This document shows, piece by piece, positions 671 through 51,712 of a stretch of DNA of 64,000 nt. Source of the stretch: a virus (Duplodnaviria > Caudoviricetes); the IMG/VR virus record IMGVR_UViG_3300035498_000404, positions 38,895-102,894 of that record. The stretch is one strand, 5' to 3'. A program made the translations under genes and the position numbers. Numbering within the stretch: position 1 is the first letter of the stretch; each line of letters opens with the position of its first letter. The notes beneath the pieces are model-generated. The model was not told the origin of the DNA. It did no database searches and saw only the letters and a list, made by a program, of their open reading frames with translations.

Positions 671-3600
671 ATGGCTGAAAGTATAATATTTAATATAGGT
701 ATTGGTATTGACGATACTGAAGTAAGACAGGATTTAACAGAAGTTACAAAACAAATACAAGAAGTTTTAAATACAGATTTAAAATTTAATATTAACGCGA
801 ATAATATTGAGGAATTACAACAGCAAGTAGCTAATCTTGGCGGGCAATTAAATATAGTAAGAGACTCTGTAACTGGTCTTGCCACTGGATTTTCTGTAAC
901 GGCAACCTCTATAACTGGGCAACTTGTAAATGTGGCTGGTAGTTTTTCAAATTTAAAAACTAGCGCTGATTCATATGTGGCATCTTTAAGTAGTATGCAC
1001 GACCAAATTTCAGGTCAAACAGGGGAACAAAAGGCAATAGCTCAAATTCAATAGGAGTATATTAGTTTATTACAAAAAGAAACTGACATTAAAGAAAAAC
1101 TAGCTGTTGCAGTTCAAAATCAAGACACTCAACAAGTAAGTTCTTTGGCAAATCAGCTTGATAAAACTTAGACGTTAATGAACTATGATGCAGAACGACT
1201 ACAACAAATACAGGGTATGTCAAATGCTGCAACTACTTTTAACGGTGTTTATGAGCAGATATTTGCAACCACATAGCAATTAGCTAACAGAAATAATGAT
1301 GCAGATGCGTTTTTAGGAACTGATGCTTCTCAAAGAATAATTGATGTTTCTACTAATCTTTCCCAGTTAGATAATACATTACAAGAATATTATTCTCTAA
1401 ATCAACAAGTTTAGAATACTGCTCCGGGAGAATATTGGGATTTATTAGACGCAAAATTAAAACAATTGCAACCAGAATATGATGCTGTTAAAACCAGTAT
1501 GGAATCTTTGGGTGTTGTGTTTGCGAATGGTCAGGCTCAATATACTGGGACAGCAGAAGCAGTTCAACAATTAGTTGAAAGATATAATGAGTTAGAGCAA
1601 CAACAAAAGGAAAACCAAGCTTAGAAAAATCAAGCTGCTACATATAAAGAAATTACAGATGCGGTTAAGGCTTATTATAAAGCGCTAACTGACGTTAAGA
1701 AATCTAATAGCGTAGAAGGCTCTGAAACATACAAAGTATTACAGCAAAATTTAACCGCTGCTGCCAATGCTACTGTAACACTTAATGGGAAAACAACTCA
1801 ATTACAAGATGTATTTTCTGCTCTTGGTATTACTATATCAAATTATGGTTCAAACTTTACTGCTGCATACAGTGGTAAAAGCCAAGAAATCCAAAAGATT
1901 GTTGATTTAATTAATCAACAAAGTCAGGCTTACGCCAAGCTTAATGCTCAAAAAGCAGACCAAGCTTCTGATACTGCATTAATTGAAAGTGCCGTAGCGG
2001 CATATAAAAAGTATAGAGACCAATTAGATGTTGTTTATAAATTAAAGAAAAGTGGGAACACTGACTTTACAAGCAACCTAAAAGAAGAAGAAGAACTCTT
2101 AAAGCAGCTTAAAACTGCGTATGAACAAGAAGAACAAGCTCTTCTTAGTAACGGTCAAGAAGTACAGAAAAATACAACTTATAACCGTGATAAAAACCAA
2201 GTAACTAGAGACTCTATTCAGGCTCAAAAAGAGTTTGATTTAAGTTTAAATACAAATTCGCTACAAAATGCTATTGCCTAGACACTACAATACACTATTA
2301 GCTTGCAGGGCTTAAAGACTGCAATTAAAGAAGTTATAGATACAACTCTTGATTTGAACGAATCAATGACGCAAATTCAGCTTGTTACCCAACAAAATAA
2401 TGATGATGCTAAAGAATTAATTCAATCTTATTCAGAATTAGCTAAAAGTTTGGGTACTACAACTGCTGATATAGCTTCTGCAAGCGTTGAGTGGCTTTTT
2501 ATTAGGTCACTATAAATCCATTTAACTGCGGGAAACCCCTTAGAGATTAACATACTAAAGGACGATAGAAATATACGTTCTGGCGAGAATAATTACCTCG
2601 GTATAGTAAAAACTGTTAATATTGGGCAATCCGCAACCAAGCCTCTAAAATAGAGGAAGGTTCATCGACTATCCCTTGGTTTCTAAAACGAAACAATAGG
2701 AGTACGGCCAATCGTTAAGGTGGGTGAAAATCCCTTAAATGGAAATGATGGATATTTTAAAGATATTTTAAAATTACTTGACAAAAAGTAATTTTTGTGA
2801 TATAATAGAATAAAGATATAGTCAATACTATGTAGAAATATATAGAAAATTCTGTTTACAGAATCTTTTGAAAAGTAACGATTTTCAGAAGTAATATAAT
2901 AGACGGCAGGGCAACAGTATTGAGGAAACTAATGACTTAATTCAAGCGTCTGCAACGCTACAAGTCATTGGTAATATGGAAGCGTCGGATTCCGTAACAG
3001 CATTAACAGCTTGATTTAGGCTGGGCATATAGTAATATATGCAATAATAAATTCTTTTAACTGCGGGAAACCTCTTAGAGATTAACATACTAAAATATAA
3101 TAGGGATATTATATTGGCGAGAATAATTACCTCGGTATAGTAAAAATTGTTAATATTGGACAATCCGCAACTAAGCACCAAGAACTGGTGAAAGCTCAAC
3201 GACCATCCCATAGGTTCTTTTCAGAACAACAGGAGTACGGCCAATCGTTAAGGTGGGTGAAAATCCCTTAAATGGAAATGGAGAATATCCTACTCTTAGG
3301 ATAAAGATATGGTCTTTTCTTATTAGAAATAATAAGGTGTTTATAAACACATATAAGATTAACGACCTTGTATAAAAATTAAAGGCTATCAACGGCTATG
3401 GATTAGAAGCTTCCGACGCAATGCAGATAGTAGACCAATTAACTACACTAGATTTGAAGTTTGCAGCTTCTTCCGGTGATATAGCGACAGCTCAACTATT
3501 AAGGGCTGGGTGTGCAGTAATGTACATAATAATAAATTCTTTTAACTGCGGGAACTTCCTTAGAGATTAACATACTAAAATATGATAGGAATATACATAT

Positions 3601-6600
3601 TGGCGAGAATAATTACCTCGGTATAGTAAAAATTGTTAATATTGGACAATCCGCAACTAAGCACCAAGAACTGGTGAAAGCTCAACGACCATCCCATAGG
3701 TTCTTTTCAGAACAACAGGAGTACGGCCAATCGTTAAGGTGGGTGAAAATCCCTTAAATGGAAATGGAGAATATCCTAAAAATAATTATAAAAGACTTGA
3801 CAAAAAGAAATAAATATGATATAATTACTGTTATAGGATAAAGATATGGTCTTTTCTTATTAGAAATAATAAGGTGTTTGTTTGTATTATGGAGATGAAA
3901 ATGATTATTTCAAAATTTGTAAATATAAGAATGGTTAGTCAAAATATTAAATATTATAGAGATTTGGGGTATGAATTTAATAACGGTGAAACAATTCCTA
4001 TCAAAATTGAAGATATTGGAAATGGAAATCGAGCATCCGTAAAGGTTAAATGTGACTATTGTGGGGATGAATATGAAGCACAATATGCAAATATTATGAA
4101 TGGCAGAAAGATTTTAAACAAAGACGCTTGCAAGAAATGTGGGCATAAAAAGAGAGAAGAAATTTTGTTGCTTTTATACGGAGTAAAAAATCCTATGCAG
4201 TTGCAGGAAATAAAAAATAGGCAACAAGATTCATTGGAAGCTCATTACGGAGTGAGAGTTCCGGCAAAAAATAAAGATATTTCAAAAAAACAAGCAGAAT
4301 CTTTTAAAAAATCTTATGGTATTGGTAGTGATGGATATGACGAGTATCAGACCAAACGAAGAAAAACCTGTATTGATAAATATAGCGTTGACAATGCCTC
4401 GAAATTAGAAGAATTTAAAGATAAAGCTGCGAAAACTTGTTTGGAAAAATATGGTGTAGAGCATCCATGTCAAAATCCAGACATTATGGAGAAATTTATA
4501 GAAACTTGCAATGAAAAATATGGTGTTGATTATTATTTGCTGACAAAGGATAAACAAATAAAAACCACAAAAACCTGTATGGATAAATATGGAGCAATAA
4601 ATATTTCAAAAACTGATTATTGGAAAGAAAAGGTAAATAATTCAGTTATGGAAAGATATGGTACAAAATGGGTCGGAGAATCAAAAGAAATTCAAGATAA
4701 AATAAAGAAAACGAATATGGAAAGATATGGCGTTGAGTGCGTCTTTTCGTTGGAAGAAATTCGTTTAAAGTCAAGAAAAACTATGCTTGAAAAATATGGT
4801 TCAATAATGCCCCAATGCGTTAGTTCTCAACAAAATTATATTCATAGTATATATGGTGGAGAATTAAATAAACAAATTGGAAAATATGTTGCTGACATTT
4901 TATTTACAGATGAACGTATTGATTTTGAATATGACGGTGGAGGACACGATTTAAGTATTAGGCTTGGAGCTATATCTGAAAATAATTTTATAGACAAAGA
5001 AACAATCAGGAATAATTATTTTATAAAAAATGGTTATAAAATTTTTAGAATTATTTCCAAAAAAGATAGATTACCAAACGATTCAATCCTTATCGAAATA
5101 AAAAATAAAGCTTTTGAAGTTTTATTAAATACAGAAAATAATATTTATACTTATAATATAGATAATAACACAGAAGAATACAAACAAATCAATGTGGAAT
5201 AACGACCCACATTAAAAATTTATACTTTCTAAAGTTGCATCTGTGGCCTCACAATCCGGTGTTTCACTGGAAAAACTAGAATCAATTCTGGTTGTCACAG
5301 AAGACCAAACACAGCAATCGGCAGACACCATTAACAAAACAGTGGTGTATAAATCAATTCTAATATTTATGCGAAAATCCAGAGATGGACAACGCTTCGG
5401 AAGGTAAATTACCGCCGACAACGACTGAATGAATTGACCAAATTTATTTTGGATGCAACAGTCTGAACACATAATATAATCGAACAATGAAATATGTGAA
5501 TAGGAGTCATTGGTAATCAGACCAATTAAAGAAGAACTTCTATCGCCTACTATAAAGTAGGTCACAAAAGTAACAGAATGTGGTAATGCTAAATGTTCTT
5601 GGCATGGCACATAGTAATATGTGCAATAATTAATCCCTTTAATTGCGGGAAACCCCTTAGAGATTAACATACTAAAATATAATAGGAATATTATATTGGC
5701 GAAAGTAACTATTTCGGTATAGTAAAAATTGTTAATATTGGGCAATCCGCAGCTAAGTGTTCAGAACGGACAAAAGTTCATCGACTATCCAATAGCTTTC
5801 AAATAAGCAACAGGAGTACGGCCAATTGTTTAGGTGAGTGAGAATCTCTTAAATGGAAATGGGGGACATCCTATTATTTAGGATGAAGATATAGTCAAAA
5901 CTTGTTAGAAATAATAAGAACTTATATTAAAAATATAAATCATTGAAAGAATCTTATTTTTAATATAGGTTGCATAAAAATAACGAACTTATGTTAATTA
6001 ATTGTGGAACAGTATTTTTGCCAGAATGTCGAAAATTGCTGCTGGTAAAGACCTTGAAGACACCGAGGTAACGCTAAATGATGTCGATAAGGTCTTAACC
6101 AAAATGAATATTAGTCTAAAGGATGAACAGGGTCAAATTCGTGACCTTGACGATGTTCTTGACGAAGTTGCAGGTCGTTGGGACACCTTTACGACAAATG
6201 AAAAGAACCAAATTAGTACGGCTATCGCGGGCACACGACAAGCCAACTATTTTAAGGCCGCAATGGCCGACTGGGGAGAAGTTCTTGACGGTACGCAAAT
6301 TGCATTAGACGCAAATGGTACGGCCACAGAGCGTATGGGTATTTATACCGAATCCCTAGGAGGTAAAATTAAGACCTTAAAGGCTACTTGGGAAGAATTT
6401 GTAGCCGATTTAAATTTGGACGATGTTATCTCTAATGTAATTAGTACAGCACAAAATCTATTAGAGATTTTTGATACTATAATAAATAAAAGCGGTGTTT
6501 TAAGTACCGTAATTAAAGGAGTTCTTGTTGCACAAGGACTAAATATTTTATCTGGCGCTGTTGTAAAGGTTCTTGGTACACTAACTGGTAGTGGTGGATT

Positions 6601-9600
6601 ATTAAGCGGCCTTATTAAACTTGCTCAGATAGCCCCTGAACTTTCTGAATTTGCAAGTTCTATAAATAGCGTCGCTGACGCACAAACTGCTTGGGCTTTA
6701 ATTACTGGTGACGGTATTTTAAAAATAATCCCAAATATACTCACTCTACTTGGTGGTTCTGGTGGTCTTGTTGCTATTCTTGGAACTCTTGCTGGTACTA
6801 TTGCGATTGTGGTTGCGGCAGTTGCCGCATTTAAATATGCTTGGGAAAATTGGTTGCCTACGCAAGCAAATGCAAATCGGCAACTAGAAGAAGCACAAGA
6901 AGAATTAGAGAATACCTAGTCAGAACTTAATGATGTAATATCAAAATTAGAAGATGTTCAATCTCAAATTGATGATTTAAATAGTAAAGATACTTTATCT
7001 ATTACAGATAAAGAGCAATTAGATATATTAAAGAAGCAAAGTGAAGAACTTGAAATACAAAAGTCTACACTTGAAGAAATGGAAAGAATCAAGCAGCAAG
7101 GCGTTCTTGATGCCAATATAAATAATCAAAATACCAAGAGTAATTTGTTTAGCTTTAACTTAGAAGATGGCCTAACAATAAATACTGCATATAACAAGAG
7201 CTTAGAAGAGCTTATATCTACATATAAGACATTGCAGATTGTTGTTGATAAAACTGGCGATTCACTTGGAACTTTTGAGATTTATGGTGATGAATTACAA
7301 GACAGATACGATAAAGCTAATGCGACCATAAATCAATATCTCCAAATGGAGCAATCTGGTTTATTAACCACTAAGTATTATACTCAAGCCCAACTTGATT
7401 CTTACCAAGAAGCTTATGATAACGCTATTAATATTCGTAATTAGATTCTTGAAATTTTAAATCCTGAACAATTTAAGAAGCTTAAAATTGAAGAAGCTCT
7501 TGACACAAGTGGTTTCAAGGGTATTGAAACAACAATTAACAACTTAAATATTAAGTTAAAAAATGGCGAAACAACATTTGAAGAATATTCCGAAGCTGTT
7601 CGTGCGGCATTAACAAAATTAGCACAAAACGACGATTTTAAGAATCTTCTTGGTGATATATTTACAGAAGATGAATTAAATGACACAGAAGCTCTCGTAG
7701 AAGAACTTGTTGGGTATCTTGATGTACAAACTAATGCTATTGTTGATGATGTCACTGATGCCCAAAATGAAATTGTCGAATCTTTTGAGGGCTATGCCGA
7801 CGGAATTAAAGAAGTAGAATCTTCTTATGAAACACTAAAAGATGCAGTAGACAGTTATAATAGTAGTGGTACTATTACAGCTAAACAACTAGAAGAATTG
7901 TTGGCACTTGACCAAGATTATTTAAATACTTTAAGTTATGAAAATGGTCAAATTAAGATAAATGGAGAAGCTATTAGTTCTTTAAAAGAAGAACAATTAG
8001 CTCTTTATAAACAACAACTTCTTACCGCTGCTTCTGCTGAAATTTTGGCTCGTGCGCAAGAAGTAAACAATCAAATAGAAGAGGATTCTATTACTGATGC
8101 TTATGAGCTAAGAGAAGCCAATTTCCAATTAAAAAATGGGCATATTGAAGCCGCAACAGGTGCTTCTGTGCAAGCGGTTGCCGAAGCAGATTTACAGACG
8201 CAATTAACTGGTGTTGCTGCTAGTGCTGGACTTACAACTGAGGCAATTCAAGACATTATAGATAAATATACTGCTCTATATGCTTTAGGAGAAAATGTAT
8301 CTGGTTCTGGTTCTTCTTCTAGTAGTAGTTCAACTAACGCTGCTAAAACTGCTTATGAAAATGAAAAAGCCAGATATGAACTGCTTGAAAAAGAAGTAGA
8401 ATTAGAGAAAGACAAATTAGAAGCCCAAAAAGATGGAGTGAAAGCAGAAGAAACTCTGCTTAAAAATAAAAAATCCGAATTAGAGCTTCAAAAACAAATC
8501 AAAGAACAACAACTTGACACTATACAAGATTCCGAGGAAGATATTACTGATTTAATTGAGTATGTCGAAAAGATGCTTAAACAACAGTACGAAGACCTCA
8601 AAACGAATCTTAAAAAGGTAAAAGAGTATGTTACTACTTGGCGTGACGCATTGTCTGATGCAAAAGATAGTTATGACGATATTACGGCTGCTATCGAGAA
8701 GCAAATGAAAGCTCAAAAAGAGCAAAATGACAATGAAAAGGCTCTAAAAGAAAAAGCGGATGCTGTTTCTGACGTTCAGGAACAATTGGCTGCTATTCAG
8801 TATGATACTTCTTCTGATGCTGCTACTAAGCGCGTCGAGTTACTAAAAGAACTTAATGATGCACAAGAGGCACTGACAGAAGAAGCACAAGACCAAGCAT
8901 ATGATTCTGCTCTCGACCAATTAGACGCTGCTCAACAAAAAATTGATGATATTTTCGACTTTATTGACGAAGCGTTGGAAGACGCAGAAGATGCTATTGA
9001 CGATTACGTTGACTATATTTCTAATACTTTAGAATCTGAAGGCAATCTGTATAAAGAGGCGTTGGCAGAAGTTCAATCTGCAATTGACGGTAACAATGAC
9101 GAATTATTGCAAAAGCTTTATAAGTGGAACAGCGCGAAATGAATGCGCTGTATAAATCGGGTTATATGCTGGAACACCCTAAAGACTTTAATACTAAAAA
9201 GTAAAAATTTAAAGTATGTTACAATGGGCAATCAGCAGGGAAGATAAGTTCACCCTCAACGACTATGGGAATATCCCACTAATATATAAGTAATTATATA
9301 TTAGAACCCCGATAAGGCATAAGCCGAATGATATAGTCTGAACTTCCATAGAAATATGGAGAATTGGGCAGAAATGACCCAATATTTTTGTGTTAGTATT
9401 TTAAAAACAAAACCAATTTTATTTTTTAGTATGACACAAAAATTAACAAAATTGATATGGAGACAACATTGCTGAAACCATTACAAAAGCTTGGAATGAT
9501 GCTCTTGACGCTGTTGAAAAATACAAAGATGCAACTGGTGAAACTAATCTGCAAAATATCCGTGAAGGATTACAAATGCAGGATACCACTCTTAGTGCAG

Positions 9601-10730
9601 AAATTGCAGCATTTGACACACAAATTGATGCCTTGCAAAATCAGATTGATGCAAAAGAAATAGAGATTGATGCTCTTGAAGTCTTAATTGATGAAAAAGA
9701 AGCAGAAATTGACCAGATTAAAATGGCTCTTTCTCAGCTTGAAATTAACTACGATGCACAAACTGTCGCAAGTAATAATGCTACAAAAGCTACATGGGAC
9801 GAAGTATATGCTCTTATTGGGCAAACTGCTGCTACTACTGATAATACTACTGCAACAGAAAATAATACCGACGCAACTAGCACCAATACAGATAAGACAG
9901 GCGACAATACTACTGCTGTTGAAGATAATACAACTAAGGTTGAAAACGCAACAGACAAGGTAGAAGATTTGTCTTATAGCACGGATGTTGCTTCTGACAA
10001 AGTTGACGCAGCAGCACAGTCTGCTGATGACGCTTCTGACGCACTGTCTGGTGCTGATAGCCTAGCCGACGCAGCTTCTACGACCAAGGACGCAATTAGC
10101 GACCTAGGAGAAGCCTCTGTTGTTGCGGCAGATAAACTTGCTGGTGGAGATGGAACTGGTAGTTCTAGCGATTCTAGCGGCACTACAACGAGTTCTGAAA
10201 CCAGTGGAATTTTAGACCTTATTAGTTCTGGAGTTTCTTACTTTACTGGTGGAACAGATGCCGGAACTGTTATTGGTAATCTACTAGCGAGATATATTCC
10301 AAAACTGGTTAATACTGGTGTAAAGTACGCAATTAAGAAAGTATCTTCTAACCATGATGGTACAAATTGCGTTGAAAAGAGTGATTCTCCGCTTGATGAC
10401 TTGTTAGGACTTGGCTCTGACGAAACTGCTCGTGTGCTAAAAGTTGGAGAAACTGTTGTTCCTAACTACGCAAGTGATGTTAAGATTCAGCAAACCGATG
10501 AACCGTTTACCACTTCTATTGATTCTCCGAATGCTTCTAATGTTTCTACTAATAATGGTGGAGACTTCAATCTTGACATGGGAGATTTAGATATTTCTGG
10601 AATTGATAGTGACGAGTTAATGAGCCAGTTAAAGAGCTTAAAGAAAGACTTCGCTGATGAGGTTTATTCTACTATTAATAAGCATATTAAAATTGGTGGA
10701 TATAGAAACGTAAAGAATAGTTACATTTAA
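671..10730 (+). CDS. Tape measure protein, spliced from 7 exons (671-2496, 2903-3011, 3385-3492, 5225-5331, 5581-5590, 6005-9135, 9455-10730); ~2188 aa; 8 in-frame TAG
   Basis: Exon lengths sum to 6567 nt (2189 codons). Joining restores tape-measure-type motifs ASVEWL|RQG..ALTA|AINGYGL..DIATA|LSKVAS..SADTI|GNA|WNSIFARM. Long coiled-coil composition. TAG at 1052, 1169, 1274, 1412, 1622, 2279, 6917, 7442 with no in-frame TAA/TGA. Confidence 0.9.
2497..2902 (+). mobile_element. Group I intron 1 of tape measure gene (406 nt, no ORF)
   Basis: P1 UGGCU/GGUCA with U.G at the splice site; core motifs actgcgggaaac..caatccgcaacc..catcgacta..gatatagtc; terminal G2902; removal gives CT+A=Leu in frame. 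Confidence 0.9.
2778..2806 (+). promoter_or_regulatory. Consensus sigma-A promoter inside intron 1
   Basis: TTGACA, 17 bp, TG-n-TATAAT. Confidence 0.8.
3012..3384 (+). mobile_element. Group I intron 2 of tape measure gene (373 nt, no ORF)
   Basis: P1 CAGCU/GGCUG; same core as intron 1; terminal G3384; frame restored (TA|AING). Confidence 0.9.
3797..3825 (+). promoter_or_regulatory. Consensus sigma-A promoter inside intron 3, upstream of the endonuclease ORF
   Basis: TTGACA, 17 bp, TG-n-TATAAT. Confidence 0.85.
3901..5202 (+). CDS. Intron-encoded homing endonuclease, probably EDxHD/Vsr-like PD-(D/E)XK type
   Basis: N-terminal CxxC..CxxC, many T-x-x-E-K-Y-G-V repeats, C-terminal ADI..DFEYDGGGHD. 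ATG 3901 follows GGAG (ORF open from 3874). No TAG. Confidence 0.75.
   Translation: MIISKFVNIRMVSQNIKYYRDLGYEFNNGETIPIKIEDIGNGNRASVKVKCDYCGDEYEAQYANIMNGRKILNKDACKKCGHKKREEILLLLYGVKNPMQLQEIKNRQQDSLEAHYGVRVPAKNKDISKKQAESFKKSYGIGSDGYDEYQTKRRKTCIDKYSVDNASKLEEFKDKAAKTCLEKYGVEHPCQNPDIMEKFIETCNEKYGVDYYLLTKDKQIKTTKTCMDKYGAINISKTDYWKEKVNNSVMERYGTKWVGESKEIQDKIKKTNMERYGVECVFSLEEIRLKSRKTMLEKYGSIMPQCVSSQQNYIHSIYGGELNKQIGKYVADILFTDERIDFEYDGGGHDLSIRLGAISENNFIDKETIRNNYFIKNGYKIFRIISKKDRLPNDSILIEIKNKAFEVLLNTENNIYTYNIDNNTEEYKQINVE
5332..5580 (+). mobile_element. Group I intron 4 (249 nt, compact, unrelated in sequence to introns 1-3/5)
   Basis: P1 ACACCAU/GUGGUGU; P7-like gactg/cagtc; terminal G5580. Confidence 0.82.
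5591..6004 (+). mobile_element. Group I intron 5 (414 nt, no ORF)
   Basis: P1 AUGCU/GGCAU; core homologous to introns 1-3; terminal G6004; GNA|WNS restored. Confidence 0.9.
9136..9454 (+). mobile_element. Group I intron 6 (319 nt, no ORF)
   Basis: P1 ACAGCGC/GCGCUGU; atgctggaac..caatcagcag..caacgacta..gatatagtctgaac; terminal G9454; GC+A=Ala gives WNSAYGDN in frame with 9576..10730. Confidence 0.85.
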
Positions 10731-10740
10731 TTAGGACACT

Positions 10741-10774
10741 AGCCCGCTTTGAAAGATAAGCGGGCTTTTATTTT
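10741..10774 (+). terminator. Intrinsic terminator after tape measure gene
   Basis: AGCCCGCTT/AAGCGGGCT stem followed by T-rich tract. Confidence 0.7.
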
Positions 10775-10784
10775 ATAAAGGTGG

Positions 10785-11699
10785 TTGGAGAGTATGCCTG
10801 TAATGGGGTGTCCATTTATTTTTAATGAAATACCTTCCGAGGCATATAACGCCTCTTTAGTATTTTTGGAAGAACAATATACGAAACGTCCTTCTGGTGG
10901 ACAAAAACAATTTACTACGGATAATGTCAGAGGAAATTCAAGAGCAATTCTATTAGATGTTTCTCAAACAGAACCTTTGAGTTTCGGAATTGAAATTGTG
11001 TTTGATGACCCAGTAGATATTCAAACTTTAACACAAGTTAAAAATTGGTTATGTTCTCCTTTAAAATATTGTAAACTTAGAATTTGTGCAGAGGGTTTTG
11101 AAAATTATTATTATAATTGTTATATAAACCTAGATAATGATTTAATTTATAATGGTGGCTATCGTGGAGTTACTGGTACAGTAACTTGTGATGCACCTTG
11201 GGCTTGGGAAAACGAACAAACTATTGATTTAGAAATTGGGACATCGACTGTCCCTGCTGAAAATAGATTTTTAAATTACTCTCAGGACGCAAATCCGATG
11301 AAACCGATTATTTCATTCACTGTGACAGAATCAAATTCAGATTCATTTTTGGCGATTGAAGATGTATTTGAAGATTCTAATGGGAATATTATATACGACA
11401 AGACTACAATATTTGTTTCTTCTAATGCAAAAACATATAAGCAAAAGAATGGAGAAATTGTAGAATATAGTATAACAAATAATTGTTACAATCTTGTAAG
11501 TGGTGAACAAATAACATTTAATAACCAAACGGCGTTACTGACTTCTTCTGTGAATCAACTTTTTAGAATTAATAATTTTAATAAAGTTTTTCTTAGAATC
11601 CCACAAGGAGTAAACAAACTTTATGTGTCTGGATTAAATATATCTAATTTAAAAATGACTTATACTAATGCTAAGAGATTAGGTGGTGGTTGGTATTAA
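10785..11699 (+). CDS. Distal tail (Dit)-like protein
   Basis: Directly after the TMP; motifs VTCDAPWAW and FLRIPQGVNKL typical of siphophage tail-family proteins; start may be ATG 10794. Confidence 0.7.
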   Translation: MESMPVMGCPFIFNEIPSEAYNASLVFLEEQYTKRPSGGQKQFTTDNVRGNSRAILLDVSQTEPLSFGIEIVFDDPVDIQTLTQVKNWLCSPLKYCKLRICAEGFENYYYNCYINLDNDLIYNGGYRGVTGTVTCDAPWAWENEQTIDLEIGTSTVPAENRFLNYSQDANPMKPIISFTVTESNSDSFLAIEDVFEDSNGNIIYDKTTIFVSSNAKTYKQKNGEIVEYSITNNCYNLVSGEQITFNNQTALLTSSVNQLFRINNFNKVFLRIPQGVNKLYVSGLNISNLKMTYTNAKRLGGGWY

Positions 11700-15222: not shown

Positions 15223-15396
15223 ATGTCTGATTTTAAAAATTGGATAAAATTAGGTGAAAATGACAGAGTGTGTAGTATTTTAACTACATATAAAGATATG
15301 ACGAATTCTGGTTTTATTCAAGTAGAAGACTATCCAGAAGGAAATTATTATTATTATTTATATAAAAATGGAACGTATATATATAGTCCTAAATAA
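15223..15396 (+). CDS. Small tail-associated hypothetical protein (57 aa)
   Basis: ATG..TAA frame filling the gap, GGGGG SD-like sequence upstream. Confidence 0.55.
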   Translation: MSDFKNWIKLGENDRVCSILTTYKDMTNSGFIQVEDYPEGNYYYYLYKNGTYIYSPK

Positions 15397-15422
15397 TTTT
15401 TAAGATTGGAGTGTGCTTAATA

Positions 15423-17207
15423 ATGAATTTAGATAGTGTTCCAATTAAATATGTGTTAGATTCAAATAACACACTTCATTAGATTGATTACGAAACATTA
15501 GCAAATTTACCTAATGGGTTAAAAAATCCATATGAATTAATAATTTTTGGTACTTCTTATGATGGTTCTAAAGAAATATCAATTGAAAAACAAATTGCTT
15601 CTAATGACTTAGTGGGATTTGTAAAGCCAGTGAATGTTTCTTCTGAAATGACAACTCCCGTTGGCATAAATGAACAAGGAAGGCTATTTACGACAAGTCA
15701 AAAAGTTGATTCATTTTTGTCTAAAGATAGCACAAACTCGGTTTAGAATTCTGTGATTACTTAGAATATTTTTAAACTAGAAGATGAATTAGATAATAAA
15801 ATAAGTGAAGAGAGCTTTAATAAAGTTGTTTCTGAAACGAACAACAAAATATAGAATTTACAAAATGATTATTTAAATAAGATTAGTTCCGTATCTTAGA
15901 ATTTAGAAAATTATAAATCAGAGACAAATGAAACAATTGATTTAATACAATAGGATTCCAAAACAAAACCAATATCATTAGTTTTTGAAGATTATAATTC
16001 ATTGTCTAATTGGTTGTCTATTCAGGACAATTTGTCGAAAATTGAATCTGGCGCTACTTTTTATTTGATACAGGGGGATACAGATTACTTTTGGGACGGA
16101 AATACAATAAGAACCATTAAAGGCTCTGGCAATAGTAATTCAAATGGTTTATAGGACTATTTATCTCAAGTTAATCCAACAGGAATTGGTAGTTTTCAAA
16201 TGAACTCTTCTGGCGCTATTGGAAAATATTCTGTTTCTCTTGGATATAATTCGGTAGCTTCTGGAACTTGTTCAACTGCAATCGGTTTAGGAGTAATATC
16301 TTCTTAGAATAACCAATTTGTATGTGGAAAGTATAATATTGAAGATACTGATAACAAATATTTATTTATAGTTGGTAATGGAGCTTCTGATAATAATAAG
16401 AGCAATGCCTTTTCTGTTACTTCTGATGGAAATATAAGTTCGTACTAGGATGTTATAGCATTTTATTCTGATAAATATTATGCGAATGATACATATTGTA
16501 ATTTTACATATAATATTTCTTCATTTAATGGAACGTTAAATATGTCGTGGGATGGATTTGCTCTTGCGGTTTCCGGTGTTTCTGGTGATTATAAATTTGA
16601 ATATACTGGTGAGCATTGGTATTGTTCTTAGGTTGACTTATCATATATTGCAGATGAAACAACACAAGAAATAGGATGGTTTCCAATAAGTATAATTGGC
16701 ATTTCTTTTGTTGATGAAAATGAAGAAGAGATAAACGAAGATACCATATCTTTTTCAAAAGGAGACTATATATTTGTTCATTTTCTTGCTCTCGAAGCTA
16801 TAAGCTTGCGAGAATTGTATAATTATACTCATTTTGGATTAAGTTCTTCTACTGAAAATATTACAAAACTAGAAGAAAATGTCTCTACTTTACAAGAAAA
16901 TTCAGAAAAATATATTTCAGAAATATCTTAGGCTATAAACGATTCTGAAAAAATTAAATATAGTATTAAAAATATAAATGATATAGAATTATCAAATATC
17001 ACATTAAATTCTGTTACCAGTGAAAAAGCTGGTCTAATGTCCTCTACTGATAAAAACAATTTAGAACAATTAATAAAAGATATTGAATCCATAAAAAAAG
17101 AAATTGAATCAATCAAAGAAAGATTAGATAAGCTTGAAAATCCAGATTCAGATAAAGATACTGATTCCGGTGAAGAATCTACTGATAAATCAAATACTAA
17201 TAAATAA
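15423..17207 (+). CDS. Tail fibre/adhesin-like protein (594 aa) with 11 in-frame TAG
   Basis: Manual translation shows no TAA/TGA for 594 codons. YadA-head-like repeats (SVSLGYNSVASG) and a GKYN..IVGNG..SNAF fibre motif; GLMSSTDK motif shared with 25061..26245. Confidence 0.85.
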
Positions 17208-38251: not shown

Positions 38252-39029
38252 TGTTTAACGTCTCCATACAACTTTCAATTTTCTTTTGTGCAATATCAAA
38301 ATATTCTTTATTAATTTCACAGCCAATGAAATTTCTACCATTTAATACAGCCATTTTACCAGTTGTTCCACTTCCCATGAATGGGTCAAACACCATATCA
38401 TTTGGATTACTCCACGAAATAATATGGTCTTCCGCTAGTTTTTCTGGAAATACAGCAGGATGTTCTCCACCCTTTTCAGGTGGGATATACCACCAATTAT
38501 TTCTTTTAGAAAATGGAGAAGAAGCTTTTCGCTTTTCAATCTTAAAAGTCCCATCTTTATTTCTTCTGCCAATTCCACTTTTGTCAATACCATAAGACTT
38601 ATTTATTTTATCTTTAATTAAATTTGTGGTTTTTGGCCTACCCTTTGAGAAAACAAACATATATTCAAAATTCTGTGTATAGCACTTGTTGCTTCCAATT
38701 GCGCCGCCACCATCTTTAACCCAAATCATTGTGTTGTGTAAATTAAATCCGCACTTCATAAAGAATAAAGCTTGTCTGAAAGAAATTCCAGTCTCACTCC
38801 CATTAACTGTTGCATCATTTACAACCCACACAACACAGCCGCCACTTTTCGTAACTCGATAGAGTTCTTTAATAATATTTTCGCAAATTTCTGAATTAAA
38901 ATACTCCAAGCTCCCATTATAATCTCTTAGATTATCATATGGCGGTGAGGTAACTGTCAAATCAATAAATTCATCTGGAAAAGTTTTTATTGTTTCCAAA
39001 CAATCTTTGTTAATTAAATTAATCCCCAT
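38244..39029 (-). CDS. DNA methyltransferase (SPPY, likely m4C)
   Basis: TSPPY, HPAVFP, DPFMGSGTT. Confidence 0.9.
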   Translation of the reverse strand: MGINLINKDCLETIKTFPDEFIDLTVTSPPYDNLRDYNGSLEYFNSEICENIIKELYRVTKSGGCVVWVVNDATVNGSETGISFRQALFFMKCGFNLHNTMIWVKDGGGAIGSNKCYTQNFEYMFVFSKGRPKTTNLIKDKINKSYGIDKSGIGRRNKDGTFKIEKRKASSPFSKRNNWWYIPPEKGGEHPAVFPEKLAEDHIISWSNPNDMVFDPFMGSGTTGKMAVLNGRNFIGCEINKEYFDIAQKKIESCMETLNND

Positions 39030-51419: not shown

Positions 51420-51506
51420 TGGTACGGCAGCTCGGAATCGAACCGAGAAAGGTGTAAACCATGACAGTTTAGAAGACTGTTCCTGTGTCCATTGAGGCAC
51501 TACCGC
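51420..51506 (-). tRNA. tRNA-Arg(UCU) with extended variable arm
   Basis: GCGGTAG/CTGCCGT acceptor, ACAGT-CTTCTAA-ACTGT, CTCGG-TTCGATT-CCGAG, encoded CCA. Confidence 0.8.
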
Positions 51507-51596: not shown

Positions 51597-51712
51597 TGGC
51601 ACTTGGGGTTGGATTTGAACCAACAGTCTACGCCTTGATAATGGAAGACTTTCTTGCTGTTACCGCCTAATAGACGGCATTTCGTCGCTTTAACCAATTA
51701 AGCTACCCAAGT
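51597..51712 (-). ncRNA. tRNA-like RNA (116 nt) with anticodon arm replaced by an ACAGCAA module
   Basis: Perfect acceptor ACTTGGG/CCCAAGT+GCCA, D arm, T arm; ~56 nt in place of the 17-nt anticodon arm. Confidence 0.8.

Follow-up and report, generated by a model that had tools for sequence, protein, structure and literature searches.

Gene anatomy of the tape measure locus

The stretch of DNA analysed here (the window, 64,000 nt) covers positions 38,895 to 102,894 of IMG/VR record IMGVR_UViG_3300035498_000404, a 102,894-bp genome with an estimated completeness of 97%; coordinates refer to the window unless stated otherwise. The genome is that of an uncultured 103-kb siphovirus-type phage with SPbeta-like features, namely a YonO-type RNA polymerase and a YomG-like tail protein. 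Under the standard code, positions 671–10730 appear as a scatter of short open reading frames (ORFs). When TAG is read through, long frames emerge at 671–2515, 6002–9142 and 9456–10730, besides a TAG-free frame at 3820–5202. An earlier note, made from the sequence alone, had proposed that this region is a single tape measure protein gene containing six group I introns, and its bounds, its introns and its 2188-amino acid (aa) product were all borne out by our analysis, through matches to the group I intron model RF00028, covariation in the fourth intron (I4) and gap-free exon junctions (Table 1).

Joining the seven exons (E1–E7) yields 6567 nt, equivalent to 2189 codons including the TAA stop, with no TAA or TGA before that final codon. 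Exactly eight in-frame TAG codons are retained, six in E1 and two in E6, matching the number of read-through events that the note had counted. The early stops that it had listed for the unspliced RNA, a TAA ending at 2515 and a TGA ending at 9142, are likewise present.

The encoded protein is recognizable as a tape measure protein by its PhageMin_Tail domain, its great length and the position of its gene upstream of Dit and Tal. At the usual ratio of 0.15 nm per residue, it would set a tail about 330 nm long, and its mass would be roughly 240 kDa. E6 matches PHROG tape-measure families, among them phrog_4211 (E value 6e-25), and partial matches to PF10145 (PhageMin_Tail) were obtained in E3 and E6. 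In the colinear, intron-less protein of a distant relative (L003, see below), the whole PF10145 domain occupies residues 490–696 (E value 8e-30). The sites of I1–I5 fall in the stretch equivalent to these residues; the introns therefore fall where the protein is best conserved, as is usual for mobile introns.

Table 1. Features of the tape measure locus; P1 is given as exon/guide, and scores are those against RF00028
Feature	Position	Strand	Length (nt)	P1	Splice-site pair	Last base	Remarks
Tape measure protein gene	671–10730	+					seven exons, six introns; 2188 aa once spliced
E1	671–2496	+	1826				608 codons + 2 nt; six TAG (1052, 1169, 1274, 1412, 1622, 2279)
I1	2497–2902	+	406	AGUGGCU/GGUCACU	U-G	G	group I; 70 bits at 2467–2845; no ORF
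Promoter in I1	2778–2806	+					TTGACA-17-TATAAT with TG extension, perfect
E2	2903–3011	+	109
I2	3012–3384	+	373	CAGCU/GGCUG	U-G	G	group I; 62 bits at 3003–3336
E3	3385–3492	+	108				carries PF10145 positions 65–99
I3	3493–5224	+	1732	CAGCU/GGCUG	U-G	A	group I; 58.7 bits at 3460–3873; endonuclease ORF in 3′ tail
Promoter in I3	3797–3825	+					TTGACA-17-TATAAT with TG extension, perfect; just upstream of endonuclease start
Putative homing endonuclease	3889–5202	+					zinc-ribbon/DUF7487 family; no in-frame TAG; inside I3
E4	5225–5331	+	107
I4	5332–5580	+	249	ACACCAU/GUGGUGU	U-G	G	small divergent group I, without P2; fold and covariation
E5	5581–5590	+	10				micro-exon UGGUAAUGCU; five of its bases build P1 of I5
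I5	5591–6004	+	414	AUGCU/GGCAU	U-G	G	group I; 69.4 bits at 5591–5918
E6	6005–9135	+	3131				two TAG (6917, 7442)
I6	9136–9454	+	319	ACAGCGC/GCGCUGU	C-G	G	other group I family; 49.4 bits at 9096–9361
E7	9455–10730	+	1276				TAA at end
Terminator-like hairpin	10741–10766	+					3′ of the tape measure gene

Identity of the introns

Splice sites were set by the rules for group I introns (5′ cleavage after a base that pairs in P1, G as the last intron base), guided by homologues. Sites for I1 and I3 suggested by the Rfam P1 assignments (2476 and 3468, respectively) were wrong, as the homologues place them at 2496 and 3492. The search with group I models that the earlier note had called for supported its prediction in part: I1, I2, I3 and I5 exceeded the RF00028 gathering cut-off of 50 bits (58.7–70 bits, E values 1e-12 to 1e-16), I6 was borderline, falling just below it (E value about 1e-11), and I4, searched alone against Rfam with E values up to 10, returned no matches. 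The U-G pair typical of the 5′ splice site is present in I1–I5, and a terminal G in every intron other than I3.

Introns I1, I2, I3 and I5 belong to one family (79–94% identity), with weaker copies elsewhere in the genome, and the cores of I2 and I3 are 94% identical. Each guide sequence matches its own exon end, which in all four cases is GCU. This family resembles sequences in the genomes of Staphylococcus, Bacillus and Vibrio phages. I6 shares 77% identity with an intron of Thomasclavelia phage TR-TP1 that interrupts the DNA polymerase gene and lies beside an HNH endonuclease.

For I4, the predicted fold contains P1, P3, P4/P5, P6, P8 and P9, with P7 recovered from the centroid fold. A motif scan detected homologues on two other phage contigs (L015 and L016), and in the resulting alignment, a small sample of three sequences, 93.5% of cells were paired and 19 of 50 pairs had changed on both sides. 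None of 500 shuffled controls scored as high, and slid controls gave at most 10. The compensatory changes lie mostly in P3 and P6, the U-G pair of P1 is kept in all three sequences, and the group I topology, including the P3/P7 pseudoknot, is thus supported by covariation among these three.

The 3′ end of I3 (UAAAAAUUUAUA|CUUUCU) finishes in A in both the window and the close relative described below, although it shares its core, P7 (GACCA/UGGUC) included, with I2, whose last bases are AAAG. Other 3′ sites for I3 were rejected: upstream, G5204 runs into an in-frame TAA at 5213–5215, after which there is no G, while downstream, G5234 and G5245 lead to a frameshift or to loss of conserved residues.

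Relatives with and without introns

Four distant relatives from IMG/VR (L003–L006, about 38% protein identity) each encode the tape measure protein in one uninterrupted frame of 2061–2136 codons containing 2–12 TAG codons. The L003 protein, used as a query, matched the window at 2904–3011, 3385–3492, 5225–5338 and from 6005 onward, with adjoining exon matches meeting at query residues 509/510, 545/546 and 581/582. When the joined product was aligned with all four intron-less proteins, no gap fell at any of the six junctions. Precise removal of the introns therefore restores a frame colinear with the uninterrupted homologues, in line with what the earlier note had expected of intron-less relatives. 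A metagenome scan for closer relatives returned two distant ones only.

A much closer relative, IMGVR_UViG_3300035521_000126 (L001), has flanking exons 90–96% identical to those of the window but differs in its set of introns. At the sites of I1 and I2, its sequence is continuous (GAGTGGCTTCGGCAGGGT and TTAACGGCTGCTATCAACGGC, respectively), with both introns missing exactly at the predicted junctions. I3 is present but lacks both the endonuclease ORF and the insert that bears the promoter, and I4, the 10-nt exon, I5 and I6 are retained. In addition, L001 carries a further group I-like intron of about 288 nt (L001 10075–10362) at ACGCT|AAAT, the equivalent of which in the window (6075/6076) is uninterrupted. 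This extra intron has a P1 of CGCU/GGCG with a U-G pair, and its 3′ end, AAAAUUG, is like that of I6.

Treated likewise, the L001 exons join into a frame for 2185 aa that includes seven TAG codons. Comparison of the two spliced frames showed 142 synonymous and 89 non-synonymous codon differences, giving a ratio of non-synonymous to synonymous substitution rates (dN/dS) of 0.175; the spliced frame is under purifying selection and is therefore what selection sees. Divergence is uneven along the gene, with the block E3-I3-E4-I4-E5-I5 97–99% identical between the two phages and E1 only 90% identical, which suggests that this block may have been transferred recently. E4 contains a single difference, which is synonymous.

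A putative homing endonuclease and its promoter

The ORF within I3 matches PF24308 (E value 3e-43) and phrog_12131 (E value 3e-50). It lies in the tail of the intron after P9, outside the ribozyme core, as expected of a homing endonuclease gene; a PDB sequence search with its putative product returned no match. Candidate start codons are the ATGs at 3889, 3895 and 3901, downstream of GGAG. A longer version of the ORF (3874–5202, 442 codons) was considered as an exon and rejected on account of its match to the endonuclease family.

The promoters in I1 and I3 are instances of an element of about 55 nt (TTGACA-17-TGnTATAAT; for example, 2752–2807) that recurs at eight other sites across the genome, oriented with the local genes. 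With a promoter but no ORF, I1 resembles an intron from which the endonuclease has been lost. The gut phage MT835481.1 (L007), which uses the standard code, encodes a protein homologous to the I3 endonuclease, likewise within an intron of its tape measure gene (about 6270–7468), and another intron of that gene (5313–5667) occupies the same protein position as I1.

TAG as a sense codon

Homology continues across all eight TAG codons of the joined frame. Seven TAG positions vary between the window and L001, and five of these are TAG/CAA exchanges; among L003–L006 a TAG in one sequence is mostly aligned with glutamine in the others; the TAG codons thus stand in conserved coding sequence opposite glutamine codons. 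Such codons are concentrated in the tail genes, and the replication arm is nearly devoid of them. Their use is a general property of the phage's tail genes and not peculiar to the tape measure gene. The densest TAG use in the genome occurs in a 604-codon frame downstream of the tail genes (15393–17207, + strand), which has 11.

Two loci on the minus strand encode unusual tRNA-like sequences. That at 51600–51712 matches the Rfam tRNA model (50.4 bits) and has intact acceptor, D and T arms, with 50 nt, including a stable 8-bp hairpin, in place of the anticodon stem-loop. ARAGORN reported it solely as a tRNA that contains an intron and has a poor anticodon stem, and an attempt to read it as an amber suppressor failed. 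The other, at 51420–51506, is an 87-nt tRNA called as Arg(UCU), whose long variable arm is atypical of arginine tRNAs.

Genomic context

The tape measure gene is followed by Dit (10785–11699), a gene for a YomG-like tail protein and, also downstream, Tal. A minus-strand ORF (5212–5745, 177 codons, TAG-free) antisense to E4-I4-E5-I5 has no Pfam or PHROG match, overlaps exons and is probably spurious. There are at least 10 RF00028 matches across the genome. Upstream of the window, at genome positions 7696–10487 (corresponding to L011 697–3488), a gene for a YonO-like single-subunit RNA polymerase (PF05183, E value 5e-11) is followed by three such matches within 1.2 kb, so that a second gene of this phage appears to contain several introns.

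Selfish invasion or phage device

We consider it probable (roughly 0.87) that the tape measure gene has been invaded by six mobile group I introns that are selfish, tolerated because they splice, and not a device of the phage. The classification as selfish mobile elements follows from three observations: intron presence varies between phages that are 90–96% identical, the family has spread, and one copy carries an endonuclease. According to this model, the primary transcript would self-splice six times, including around the 10-nt E5, and the eight UAG codons would be decoded as glutamine to give the 2188-aa protein. I1, I2, I3 and I5 would have arisen by the spread of a single family to GCU-ending sites, the guide being fitted to each site, and the endonuclease of I3, free of TAG, would be expressed from its own standard promoter.

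Several points weigh against this model. Splicing itself we infer from sequence comparison, as we do the order of splicing and the decoding of UAG. The assignment of I4 is backed by three sequences only, and ARAGORN, applied to the whole 102,894-bp genome, found no tRNA with a CUA anticodon among seven tRNAs. At the 5′ splice site of I6, the pair is C-G (exon base C9135), whereas its TR-TP1 homologue has U-G. A terminal G (omega G) is near-universal at group I 3′ splice sites, and ribozyme work has established that a terminal A is expected to impair exon ligation; because I3 ends in A despite an I2-like core ending in G, poor ligation is expected at 5224/5225.

The earlier note had viewed splicing and recoding as a double lock on tail assembly, that is, as two checkpoints that would delay or dose it. 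Early termination of the unspliced RNA, the concentration of TAG codons in tail genes together with a TAG-free endonuclease, and a published proposal that late genes are delayed by recoding (bioRxiv 10.1101/2021.08.26.457843) all fit such a scheme. However, L001 lacks I1 and I2 and carries an intron at a further site, which means that none of the introns is individually required; the intron-less relatives L003–L006 nevertheless keep their TAG codons; and the polymorphism of the introns, the expansion of their family within the gene and the endonuclease point to selfish spread, leaving the double lock unsupported and, in our estimation, very improbable. Still more remote are the prospects that the phage is defective and the gene a pseudogene in decay, or that the repeated introns are an assembly artefact. 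Four similar repeats within 3.5 kb could confuse an assembler, and two of the splice sites are non-canonical, but the order I3-E4-I4-E5-I5 is reproduced in the independent assemblies of L001 and L002, and the absence of any frame-breaking change in 6567 nt, the dN/dS value and the estimated near-completeness of the record speak against these readings.

It is also conceivable, although unlikely, that I3 (terminal A) or I6 (C-G) is crippled and that the protein comes from a minority of correctly spliced transcripts or from exon skipping, for example by joining E3 to E6. Such a join would keep the frame at the cost of 39 residues, as E4 and E5 together comprise 117 nt, a multiple of three. I3 ends in A despite its I2-like core, and the in-frame TAA bars it from any upstream G. 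Exon skipping by group I introns has been documented in Twort and in the terminase gene of SIOphi (PMC11878797). Set against this, neither E4 nor E5 is disrupted, both align colinearly with homologues, and the only difference in E4 from L001 is synonymous, although this says little about selection in a block that is 99% identical. A literature search for natural introns lacking the terminal G yielded nothing usable. That I3 ligates its exons after a terminal A with an ordinary guanosine-binding P7, or else that the phage lives by skipping around a crippled intron, we put forward tentatively, as a rather unlikely proposition.

Relation to known systems

The earlier note had placed phage group I introns mostly in nucleotide-metabolism, polymerase or terminase genes. 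The view that they avoid structural genes is outdated, as tape measure genes have been described as a 'frequently interrupted gene' (PMC10448857). In prophages of the Bacillus cereus group, introns of the tape measure gene (TMP-IVS1, IVS2 and IVS3a/b) occupy three sites, and no gene contains more than two of them (Tourasse and Kolsto 2008, PMC2504315). The present case resembles those prophages in having group I introns in the conserved part of the gene, related introns at different sites with adapted guides, and variable presence, but differs from their standard code and two introns at most in its six introns, seven sites within the lineage, 10-nt exon and eight TAG sense codons. In Vibrio phage ICP1, splicing of the tape measure gene was demonstrated by RNA sequencing and reverse-transcription PCR (Barth et al. 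2023, PMC10448857). Both systems combine tape measure introns with a homing endonuclease, and endonuclease content differs between isolates in ICP1. ICP1 is set apart by its smaller number of introns, its HNH-type endonuclease and its use of the standard code, and whereas splicing was observed there, it is predicted here.

Several group I introns in one gene, with small internal exons and exon skipping, are known from Staphylococcus phage Twort and the Bastillevirinae (Weglewska et al. 2025, PMC11878797), including three introns in Twort orf142 (Landthaler and Shub 1999, as cited in PMC11878797). Our phage shares with these the multiple introns and a small exon between two of them, but has six introns in one gene compared with up to three. 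Among gut phages, the crAss-like Zeta and Delta groups have up to 14 introns per genome, and four interruptions divide a capsid gene into five pieces (Yutin et al. 2021, PMC7886860). They, too, combine stop-codon reassignment with high intron density; however, they belong to a different phage order without a tape measure protein, and their introns were inferred mainly from endonuclease domains. The published maxima that we found were two per tape measure gene in the B. cereus prophages, three in Twort orf142 and four interruptions in the crAss-like capsid gene. The six introns in one gene, the seven sites in the lineage and the 10-nt exon exceed the published counts cited, while the mechanism is familiar.

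Because introns and TAG codons both interrupt the gene, standard gene finders split it into a dozen meaningless ORFs, which shows the extent to which the structural module of an uncultured phage can be hidden by these features. The near-identical pair formed by the window and L001 offers natural before-and-after alleles for studying how an intron family is copied to new sites within a gene. Finally, the 10-nt exon, the terminal A of I3 and the C-G pair of I6 constitute test cases for the limits of splice-site recognition by group I introns. If I3 does ligate its exons after a terminal A in these two phages, 3′ splice-site choice in vivo would be less strict than textbook ribozymes imply.

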